Positions 36,001 to 39,000 of a stretch of 64,000 nucleotides of DNA are shown piece after piece. Numbering within the stretch: the first letter of the stretch is position 1; every line of letters starts with the position of its first letter. Source of the DNA: Escherichia coli (GTDB lineage: Bacteria > Pseudomonadota > Gammaproteobacteria > Enterobacterales > Enterobacteriaceae); NCBI RefSeq assembly GCF_003790525.1, contig NZ_CP033635.1. One strand, given 5' to 3'. Made by a program: the position numbers.

Positions 36001-39000
36001 ACCATTTCAGCCATGTTTCGGTGATGCGGAAAGTGCTGCTAAGAATGACCAGTTGGATGCATTATCTTTATTTGGATCATTAAATAATATTAATGTATTG
36101 AATCTTGTAAATGTGGTTGAGAGCAAAAAATTGCAAATACAGGACATGAGAATTCGCTGTTCAGGCAGCGAAACTCGAGCCCTTTTTGTCTAGTCCACTG
36201 AGAATATAAACGCTCCTTTGATGCCCAAAAGTGGACATTTAATTATTTCTTTTTACCTTGAGAGAAAACTGTTTCGGTGTAATACCAAAATAGCTCTTAA
36301 AGTTTCGAATGAAATAAGATGTACTGGTATATCCAACATCATATGCAATACTATTAATATGTTTTTCAGTGGATGTAATCATCTTTGCTGCATGATGCAT
36401 TCTGATATCTAACACCAACGCATTAAAGTTATTGTTTTCTTTTTCAAGTTTTTTTCTAATCGAAACCTCAGACATATGCAAAATATCCCTAAGATCCATT
36501 AACTTCCAATTTCTTGATAAATCTGATTCGATAATTTTTTTGATTTTTTCTGTAAAAGTGATATCTGTTGAAACTGATAGTGAATAAACAAGAGGTTCAA
36601 TTTCATGGATTCTGGAAAGTAAATAGGCTATTTTATAAACTTGTCTGTGTTTCGGTAAGTTATTATTAATCAGACGTTTAAAAATTTCTTTATCTGTTTC
36701 CTCAAGGATATAAAAAAATATTTTTTTTCTTATTTGACTCACTAGTTGATGGCCTAAAAGAAGTGGCTCCATAACCTTACACACGCTATTTAATAGATAG
36801 CTATCAATAGTATAGATATCATAAGGTATACCGCTGCCAAGCACTTTTAATGTTGCATCAACGACAAGATTCTTTTCTATATAGCATAAAGAAAAAGGAG
36901 GGATGTTAATAACATCTCCATCTTTTGCTTTAATAACTAATTGTGCATTTCTAATAAAAATCATTGCGCTATTATAAAAACGAATTTTTTTAATGTAAGT
37001 GTATGATTTTTGTCTAGATTTCTATTGACAGAGATGTCAAGCTTTGTACAAGTAACTCGACTATTCATAAAGCCACCTCATGCTTTGTATATATATAATT
37101 CCATGAGTTATTAAGTTGTGTAAACTCGAAAATTCAACGTGAGTTAATTTTAAACAATCTAACAAATAATTAAAAAAACAATGAATTATATGCGTAATGG
37201 ATGTAATCACTATAAGAATAATAATATTATCGTAATGAAATTATGCGTAATTAACGAGTCAATCCTCAGGTTCAATTGTTTGGTTAAAAAAAATTCTTAA
37301 TAATGCGGGTAATTTCCTGGTTGTTTTCATCCCCAACTTAACTTTGATGCGACTGACTCGATAATAGATTTTTTCTTTTGAGAGATTAGTCATTTTTGAA
37401 ATCTCTCTTACACTCTTACCATGAAAATAGAAAAGGTATAAAATCTCCATTTCAATATTATTTAAGGAGTTTATTGCTTCACTTACCGATGCCTTCTTTT
37501 TATGAATGTAGATAGAGTTATGATGTATTCTAATATTATTAGTATCAATACACTTTATCGATTTTCCGGATAACAGAAGACTATATGCATAATAATTTTT
37601 AATATCACAAATAAGATAAATCTCATTTGTATCAAAATCAGCTCTGACTATGTCATCGATTTCTGTAAAATCTATGCATCGAAATGTTTTGTTAATATCA
37701 GATATCAACCGCATCCCGTAATTGAAAAAATTATTATCACTGGCAAGTATAAAGACAAGATTCATACATATCCTAAAATATTATCTTTTATATTATGCGA
37801 CAACTATAAGATAAAGATTTTTTAATATCTACATTAAAAATATAAAGATTTGATAAAAAACTATAACTAATTAACCAGTAAAATAACAATAATTACTTTT
37901 AGTAGAGTTGAGTACTTCAGGTGACGCTCATTATCGTATGCATTTATATAAATGATCTATAATCATTTTTCAGTATAAGGTCGTTTCATGTTGTTGATCT
38001 GTTGAGGAATATTCATTGTCACAATTAAGATATGTTCAAGGTAAATGGTATGTTTTCTTCAAAAAATCCCGACTTCAATAGCAGACAATCTGTTGCCATC
38101 AAAAGAACAATTGAACTTTTACTATAGGCATGTCGTGACAGATAAGATTATGTTGTTAAATACACTCTAAAATTTAAATTTTACTTATCAAAACATTCAA
38201 TTTCCATGAGGATAACTTTAAATATAAATAAATGGCGCAATAAATAAAACTATTTCGTCCTTAATTTGAAGACTATTCATAACAAGCATAAAAAATAAAA
38301 ACATCAAGAATAAAAATGAAAGTTAATTTAGCGTGTGTTTTCTAAATAAAATAAAGAGATATAAAAACCAGATAATGAGGTTTTATTGTTGACCATCTTA
38401 TCTTATGCGAGGTAATTTTTGCGACGTTCATGAACTTCTGGGCATGAACAAATATAGGACTAACCGAATTTGGGGCTAACAATTCTTTAAAGGCTTTAAG
38501 GAGCATTAAATGAAAAAATTGGTTTTAGGTTCAGCTATTCTTGCTGTACTTGGGATGACTTCTACTGCAATGGCTGCAAACAGTGGTACTGTTAATTTTA
38601 CAGGGGCTGTATCCAGCGCAACGTGTGATCTTAAAGTTACAAATGCTTCTGGAGCTGAGATACCTACAGTTGATTTAGGTACTGTATCAACGACGGGAAC
38701 ACCTGCTTCAGTTCAATTTAAGCTTGTTCCTTCAGATAATGCTTGCTTGGCAAAAAATGGAGCCCAGATTAGCTGGACATCAAATAATTTAACAACCCAA
38801 GGTTTTAGCAATGCAACTACGGGGGGAACAAATGCATATATGGCATTACTTACTTCTAATGCCCAAGAAACTGGTGCGAGCTCATATGTTAAATCCGGTC
38901 AAACTACTTTTAACTATCAAGTAACTAGTGGCGGTATTCGATCTTTTGATTACAGTGCTTCGTTAGTTAAACCTACTGGTACTGTGACTCCAGGCGCATT

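Follow-up and report, generated by a model that had tools for sequence, protein, structure and literature searches.

The K99 (F5, fan) fimbriae of enterotoxigenic Escherichia coli are plasmid-borne, with the gene order fanC-D-E-F-G-H and the PapB-family regulators FanA and FanB. K99 and many related operons respond to Lrp, and the GATC sites of the Pap switch are spaced ~102 bp apart. A hairpin after the pilin gene, which stabilizes the message and limits read-through into the usher gene, is usual for chaperone–usher operons, and long leaders are known in some fimbrial and biofilm operons. In E. coli, AT-rich DNA is expected to be coated by H-NS (xenogeneic silencing), and the silencing to be relieved by dedicated regulators; an mRNA with a hairpin at its 5′ terminus should be shielded from 5′-end-dependent decay, as in ompA. 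For the activators AggR and Rns, the described layout places the sequence WWWWWWWTATC 21–23 bp upstream of the −10 element (PMC6392122). The usher EcSMS35_3926 of E. coli SMS-3-5 was typed as “K99” by Wurpel and colleagues (Wurpel et al. 2013, PMC3559732, supplement). Here, we analyze a 744-bp gap upstream of the pilin gene of a chaperone–usher operon in a 64,000-nucleotide stretch of an E. coli genome (assembly GCF_003790525.1, contig NZ_CP033635.1; hereafter the window). Bases 36000–39100 of the window are 100% identical to E. coli CM2 and 100.0% identical to SMS-3-5, with one 1-bp indel, and the operon belongs to the K99-like kappa clade of chaperone–usher systems.

The gap is probably a composite control region of fixed orientation that serves two divergent transcription units on an acquired island. 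It occupies positions 37766–38509, as a first-pass annotation of the window had proposed, and its length is 744 bp rather than the 745 bp given there; it is bounded by the start of the minus-strand open reading frame (ORF) at 37765 and by the pilin ATG at 38510. The genes on its two sides are as follows:

37259–37765, minus strand: gene of a 168-aa regulator with a short receiver-like N-terminal domain and a LuxR/GerE-type (sigma-70 region 4-like) helix-turn-helix (HTH)
38510–39037, plus strand: gene of a FanC/K99-like major fimbrial subunit (pilin), with a conserved signal-peptide part and a hypervariable mature part

The gap was described from the outset as AT-rich and noncoding, and this holds: its GC content is 26.9%, compared with 38.8% for the island and 48.0% for the window, and there is no credible ORF inside it. 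The longest ORFs within it encode 41 aa on the plus strand and 54 aa on the minus strand, and indels break both in orthologues. An Rfam scan of 37000–39200 with E values up to 1 found nothing within the gap; the only match in the scanned region was a sub-threshold STnc420 match (21 bits versus a gathering score of 70) on the hairpin 3′ of the pilin gene. A comparison of the leader DNA with plasmids gave nothing but a chance 46-bp match in Priestia. The dense A/T tracts noted earlier are present, but they do not exceed what the base composition predicts: 24 A/T runs of at least 4 bases were counted versus 20.6 ± 3.0 in shuffled sequences, which is at chance level, and the 10–11 bp phasing of these runs is at shuffle expectation. 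Only the motif CATGAAC (described below) stands out statistically in the gap.

Sliding identity was calculated against two E. marmotae-type loci (L018 and L019), which are 86% identical overall. The resulting profile has 3 parts: (i) identity is 86–93% at positions 37766–37895; (ii) it is 63–67% at positions 38000–38340; and (iii) it is 82–99% at positions 38345–38509. Footprinting thus yields conserved promoter-like blocks at both ends of the gap, and the first-pass expectation that the region holds promoters or regulator-binding sites is very probably right.

The right block carries the most detailed signals. It was compared among 9 homologue types from Escherichia, Citrobacter, Enterobacter, and Hafnia-type loci, which were traced from pilin homologues at 53–77% identity back to their source contigs. 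Its features are listed in the order in which they occur on the plus strand:

38356–38368, plus strand: GATA and A-run box GAGATATAAAAAC, found by alignment; a candidate regulator or UP-like site
38389–38394, plus strand: TTGACC, the putative −35 element of a sigma-70 promoter of the pilin operon
38413–38418, plus strand: TAATTT, the putative −10 element, placed after an 18-bp spacer
38426–38449, plus strand: stem-loop GTTCATG / AACTTCTGGG / CATGAAC, at the predicted 5′ end of the pilin mRNA
38450–38465 (unit 1) and 38466–38481 (unit 2), plus strand: leader box GAATTTAGGACTAAC, a 16-nt tandem duplication
38481–38509, plus strand: translation initiation region AATTCTTTAAAGGCTTTAAGGAGCATTAA, 97–100% identical to the E. 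marmotae-type loci on a background of 86%
38498–38503, plus strand: Shine-Dalgarno sequence AAGGAG

Across the 9 types, the −35 element reads TTGACC (or TTTGCC) and the −10 element reads TAATTT, TAAATT, or TATATT, with the spacing between them held at 17–18 bp despite unrelated spacer sequence. Hexamers and spacing that are kept while the spacer sequence is not are the signature of a sigma-70 promoter. The GATA core of the upstream box (alignment columns G79 A80 T81 A82) is invariant, the A-run is largely kept, and the distance from the box to the −35 element is 31–32 bp in all 9 homologues. On the basis of this conservation, the pilin operon is probably transcribed from 38389–38418 with a start near 38425. 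The box would be a candidate site for the AraC-like regulator that accompanies the operon family, and a transcription start at ~38424–38426 would give a leader of ~85 nt that begins with the stem-loop.

The stem-loop accounts for the CATGAAC motif that the first-pass annotation had reported as duplicated. CATGAAC is located at 38429–38435 and 38443–38449, and its reverse complement, GTTCATG, at 38426–38432; these are 3 occurrences where dinucleotide shuffles predict 0.06, and a count of 3 was not reached in any of 500 shuffles. The motif is therefore real, but what was taken for a duplication is better read as the 2 arms of a conserved stem-loop, whose variants are given below:

window: 5′ arm GTTCATG, loop of 10 nt, 3′ arm CATGAAC
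L007: 5′ arm CGTTCATGA, loop of 8 nt, 3′ arm TCATGGGCG
L011 type: 5′ arm CGCTCAT, loop of 9 nt, 3′ arm ATGAGCG
L013 and L017: 5′ arm GCTCAT, loop of 10 nt, 3′ arm ATGAGC

The window hairpin has a minimum free energy of −10.7 kcal/mol (z = −5.7), and 7 sequence variants fold alike, with energies of −6.9 to −12.3 kcal/mol and z values of −2.3 to −6.9. RNAalifold predicted the hairpin independently and unprompted. The 6 core pairs are 100% paired across 8 distinct sequences, and the stem substitutions all keep the pairing (one pair is UA, UG, or CG; 2 others change from GC to GU and from UA to UG), while the loop varies in both sequence and length (8–10 nt). G-U pairs are tolerable only in the plus-strand RNA. 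In every homologue type, the hairpin begins 5–7 nt past the −10 element, and it starts ~0–2 nt from the predicted 5′ end. The hairpin is well supported by conservation and folding and weakly by covariation. At such a position, it would shield the pilin mRNA from 5′-end-dependent decay.

Downstream of the hairpin, the leader would terminate in an almost invariant ribosome-binding region. The core of the initiation region, TTCTTTAAAGGCTTTAAGGAGCATTAA, is invariant in 7 of the 9 homologue types, and the leader together with the signal-peptide codons (38445–38594) is 97–100% identical between species that are 14% apart elsewhere. The box GAATTTAGGACTAAC is duplicated only in the Escherichia loci; one copy is present in the Citrobacter, Hafnia-type, and Enterobacter loci. 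GGA is present both in the first copy of this box and in the Shine-Dalgarno sequence. An exact-pattern scan with the ribosome-binding segment found no match in species-representative genomes and 2 matches in JGI metagenomes, both of them E. coli-like, and a peptide-pattern scan of representative genomes found 2 loci only. A pairing of the second leader repeat with codons 5–9 and a small hairpin over the Shine-Dalgarno sequence were also predicted; the pairs concerned are invariant or rich in G-U, and we place no weight on either structure.

The left block adjoins the 168-aa regulator gene and contains the following features:

37766–37860, minus strand: putative promoter and leader of the regulator gene, from the promoter scan and conservation
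37831–37826, minus strand: TAGATA, candidate −35 element, with a 17-bp spacer to the −10 element
37808–37803, minus strand: TATAGT, candidate −10 element, flagged by the promoter scan
~37841–37855: TATCAAA-N-TTTGATA-like dyad upstream of the TAGATA −35 element, degenerate in the window

The dyad is perfect in L018, L003, and L002. The left block is matched at 76–79% identity in 70 other E. coli genomes, and homology to L002, which represents a second type of island (described below), ends at window position 37860, ~95 bp into the gap. The block is thus kept beside the same regulators where the fimbrial operon differs, and on this ground we assign it to the regulator gene: the left ~100–130 bp would be the promoter and short leader that drive the RcsB/EvgA-like 168-aa regulator. 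The regulator itself matches Pfam Sigma70_r4_2 (5e-9). Its AlphaFold model (pLDDT 80.5) has its best fold matches in RcsB, EvgA, and FixJ, with weak TM-scores of 0.3–0.48, and the protein is modeled as a truncated receiver-like domain followed by a LuxR-type HTH. The family is rare, with 26 representatives among 1.8 billion proteins.

Between the 2 blocks lies one further feature:

37861–38344, no strand: AT-rich spacer, delimited by the identity profile, with no enrichment of repeats or motifs

In the spacer, identity to the orthologues falls from ~80% to 63–67%. It is colinear in the orthologues and free of ORFs, with small conserved islets only (such as TTATCAAAA at 38187–38195); the middle ~450 bp of the gap are fast-evolving and poorly conserved. 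The gap is markedly more AT-rich than its host DNA, and H-NS would be expected to coat DNA of such composition, so that the operon would be silent unless an activator overrides the silencing.

Several observations weigh against parts of this reading. At the pilin promoter, the −10 element TAATTT fits the consensus at only 3 of 6 positions, the generic promoter scan gave no call, and the AggR/Rns layout is missing, with no TATC 21–23 bp before 38413; both the promoter and the start near 38424–38426 are deduced from conservation. Covariation in the hairpin stem favors the hairpin in direction but is weak: only one pair shows changes in both partners, and the observed score is reached in 185 of 500 shuffles, a nonsignificant control that results from how little the stem varies. 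Matches to the H-NS nucleation motif TCGATAAATT in the gap are no more numerous than in shuffles, and A-tract phasing is not enriched either, so that the suggestion of H-NS binding relies on composition. Part of the very high conservation across the leader and signal-peptide codons could stem from recent recombination instead of constraint.

We weighed several other explanations of the region. The first-pass annotation had raised the possibility of a fim-like invertible promoter, which a recombinase would flip between ON and OFF in phase variation; this is extremely improbable. It would suit the long AT-rich leader before the pilin gene, as at fimS, and one 8/9 match to the fimS repeat, TTGGGGCTA, does occur at 38470–38478. 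However, this nonamer has no partner in the region (the nearest inverted match is 2.7 kb away, within the usher gene), other loci do not preserve it (TTGGGAC in L018 and TT-GGGC in L004), and fimS-repeat matches in the window are rarer than chance. No flanking repeats were found: the best inverted-repeat score for arms at least 50 bp apart was 9, versus a shuffle mean of 10.8 ± 1.2, all of 100 dinucleotide shuffles equaled or exceeded it, and the pairs recovered were AT-rich matches with 70–79% complementarity only. No recombinase is annotated between yibH and yibF in SMS-3-5 or in the orthologous loci. Orientation is the same in all the full-length matches listed, each of which is a single colinear piece. 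In all 73 E. coli genomes that carry the island, at least 80% of the 744-bp query is found at a single site; class representatives with 96.8% and 93.1% identity show scattered substitutions only, and the E. marmotae-type orthologues are colinear throughout at 86% identity. A tyrosine recombinase gene does stand 1.6 kb upstream of the pilin gene on the Yersinia enterocolitica plasmid NZ_CP124239.1 (L005 and L006), whose operon is the closest plasmid homologue (pilin 58.9% identical). We rejected this recombinase as a guide to the present locus, as the Yersinia leader is without similarity and the intervening DNA looks mosaic. An epigenetic switch of the Pap type, based on competition between Dam methylation at 2 GATC sites and Lrp binding aided by PapI/PapB-type proteins, is very improbable as well. 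Two GATC sites are present, at 37954 and 37996, but their spacing is 42 bp, unlike that in Pap, and the GATC count is at chance (4 on both strands versus 3.6 expected). Strain 33F4 and L018 lack the second site, and 33F4 has another GATC instead. Both sites lie ~430–470 bp upstream of the putative pilin promoter, no homologue or remnant of FanA, FanB, or PapB was found in the leader, and no PapB/PapI-family gene is annotated.

If the promoter instead lay far upstream, most of the 744 bp would be a long regulatory 5′ untranslated region, acting as a small-RNA target, a riboswitch-like element, or a leader-peptide region. Two plus-strand AggR-type W7TATC matches, at 37775 and 37819, would fit such a promoter; 2 matches in the gap versus 0.9 expected is chance level, however, and both are located in the regulator-gene block. 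The middle 450 bp are also the least conserved part of the locus, and neither an Rfam family nor a conserved small ORF is found in the gap, which makes this explanation quite improbable. It is also rather improbable that GTTCATGAAC/CATGAAC acts as a DNA operator, at which a dimeric regulator just past the −10 element would repress or activate, rather than as an RNA hairpin. In its favor, the window sequence GTTCATGAAC is palindromic over all 10 bp and overlaps the predicted start site, a classic repressor position, and a LuxR-type regulator, for which dyad binding is expected, is encoded next door. But the palindrome is not conserved (CGCTCATCATC in the L011 type), and it is the long-range complementarity of the arms that persists. 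The TCAT and ATGA cores are 9 to 12 nt apart, depending on the locus, which fits a rigid dimer poorly, and the G-U pairs in 4 of the 8 distinct sequences would be A-C mismatches in a DNA dyad. The hairpin is also kept in the inspected Citrobacter and Hafnia-type loci where no 168-aa regulator gene was called beside the operon. Control beyond a simple promoter is unlikely; it would comprise a post-transcriptional element or recombination anchor at 38445–38594 together with ON/OFF slippage in the AraC-like gene. The segment 38445–38594 could be an anti-Shine-Dalgarno thermosensor, a target of CsrA or of a small RNA, or a fixed anchor for the swapping of pilin alleles, and any ON/OFF switching may arise from slippage of a T8/A8 run early in the AraC-like activator gene rather than from DNA inversion.

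The gap is part of a low-GC island inserted between the core genes yibH and yibF; the flanking yibH gene has a GC content of 50–60%. The island is horizontally acquired. This version of it is carried by 73 of 5426 complete E. coli genomes (~1.3%), and the sources of the carrier isolates include human, poultry, dog, and water. Its genes are arranged as an AraC-family regulator (minus strand), the 168-aa HTH regulator (minus strand), the 744-bp gap, a six-gene chaperone–usher operon, and a SPATE gene. The yibH context and both regulators are common to 6 loci (the window, L003, L004, L018, L019, and L020); the other homologous loci (Citrobacter, Enterobacter, and Hafnia-type) are at different genome positions. 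The remaining genes of the island in the window are as follows:

36239–37068, minus strand: AraC/XylS-family regulator gene (Pfam HTH_18/HTH_AraC), of low GC content
39109–41466: usher gene, PefC/AfrB type
41435–42154: chaperone gene, followed by 3 more subunit-like genes
44367–48182: SPATE autotransporter gene (1271 aa, S6 family), directly 3′ of the fimbrial operon

The AraC-like regulator is the best candidate activator of the pilin operon, judging from its sequence family and gene context. Homologues travel with the operon family even when the gene sits downstream, as in the Hafnia/Citrobacter-type locus L011, where a homologue with 43% identity lies downstream of the related operon. In NCBIfam, the regulator scores best against HilD, an AraC-family model without a name (PRK15186), YdeO, and HilC, in each case far under the cut-off. 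In SMS-3-5, the protein has 276 aa; in the window, it is frameshifted after about codon 28 by a T7 run at 36985–36991, where SMS-3-5 has T8. An exact match to the T7 form was obtained in 43 of the 73 carriers and no such match in the remaining 30; among the matches listed for these non-T7 genomes, most align over 81 bases, the length expected for T8. T7 and T8 are each present in both leader lineages: CM2 has T7 although its relatives have T8, and TUM13936 is T8-like although its relatives have T7. The difference may represent slipped-strand phase variation, fixed inactivation, or a homopolymer assembly error. The very ability to express the fimbriae likely depends on whether a strain has the intact (T8) or the frameshifted (T7) regulator.

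The pilin shares 38.8% identity with FanC over 99% of the length (E = 1e-22) and matches NCBIfam PefA at 8.8e-20, under the model cut-off. Between the pilin and usher genes lies one further structure:

39049–39078, plus strand: GC-rich stem-loop with a 12-bp stem and a T-rich tail, terminator-like or stabilizer-like

An equivalent post-pilin hairpin is present in all 9 homologues folded, conserved in structure and different in sequence. Acting together, the 5′ hairpin and the post-pilin hairpin probably limit read-through into the usher gene and would yield a stable pilin message in excess over that of the usher. In a comparison with L020, another E. coli locus, the mature pilin region (38600–39070) is 48–65% identical at the nucleotide level and its flanks are 99–100% identical, which looks like replacement of the pilin allele by recombination between conserved flanks.

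The same regulators and toxin gene recur in other arrangements. A second type of island at yibH–yibF, seen in the single genome inspected (E. coli MCJCHV-1; L002, 7475–17604), shares the 2 regulators and has a SPATE gene, but its fimbrial operon (subunit, chaperone, and usher) is a different one; its gap before the fimbrial operon is 1021 bp, and its small regulator ORF encodes 173 aa and is unannotated in its record. In L017, whose pilin is named as from Enterobacter roggenkampii, the region upstream of the pilin gene contains a divergently oriented SPATE gene. In the metagenome contigs L026–L028, the small regulator and the AraC-like regulator are again found side by side; the pair adjoins SPATE genes in L026 and L027, and in L026 it is also near a K99-like fimbrial operon. 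This recurrence suggests a mobile regulator–toxin–adhesin module. The TagB/TagC SPATE island was considered as a counterpart and rejected, because it occupies the yjdI–yjdK site (PMC6592367) rather than yibH–yibF.

The analysis removes a false lead, since there is no sign of an invertible switch, and replaces it with a map, open to experimental test, of how the control region is laid out in a sporadic K99-like fimbrial operon beside a SPATE toxin gene. The map is of modest practical value: it shows where reporter fusions belong and which strains carry an intact AraC-like regulator.

Structural comparison with described systems revealed both likenesses and differences: (i) as at fimS, an AT-rich noncoding stretch lies upstream of the major fimbrial subunit gene, but here inverted repeats do not flank the segment, no recombinase gene is annotated nearby, and the orientation is constant; (ii) as in the ompA-type stabilizer, a stable hairpin lies near the putative 5′ end and its structure, not its loop sequence, is conserved, but here the 5′ end is placed from the position of the −10 element and the stabilizing role is assigned by analogy; and (iii) as in fimbrial activation by AraC-family proteins of the Rns/CfaD/AggR type, an AT-rich acquired operon has a dedicated low-GC AraC-family gene and a conserved upstream box, but the GATA/A-run box here is reversed in orientation and located at about −65. 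No sequence similarity connects the leader to the DNA upstream of fan, and a tblastn search of it with FanA and FanB yielded nothing beyond 7-residue matches (E ≥ 0.35), with no remnant of either gene. The operon itself resembles K99 in its gene order (major subunit, usher, chaperone, a subunit of ~325 aa, and 2 subunits of ~170 aa), its PefC/AfrB-type usher, its FanC-homologous pilin, and its post-pilin stem-loop. It differs from K99 in being chromosomal, at yibH–yibF, and in having divergent AraC-like and RcsB/EvgA-like regulators in place of FanA and FanB. The region is best filed as an uncharacterized member of a familiar class, the long AT-rich regulatory regions of acquired fimbrial operons.

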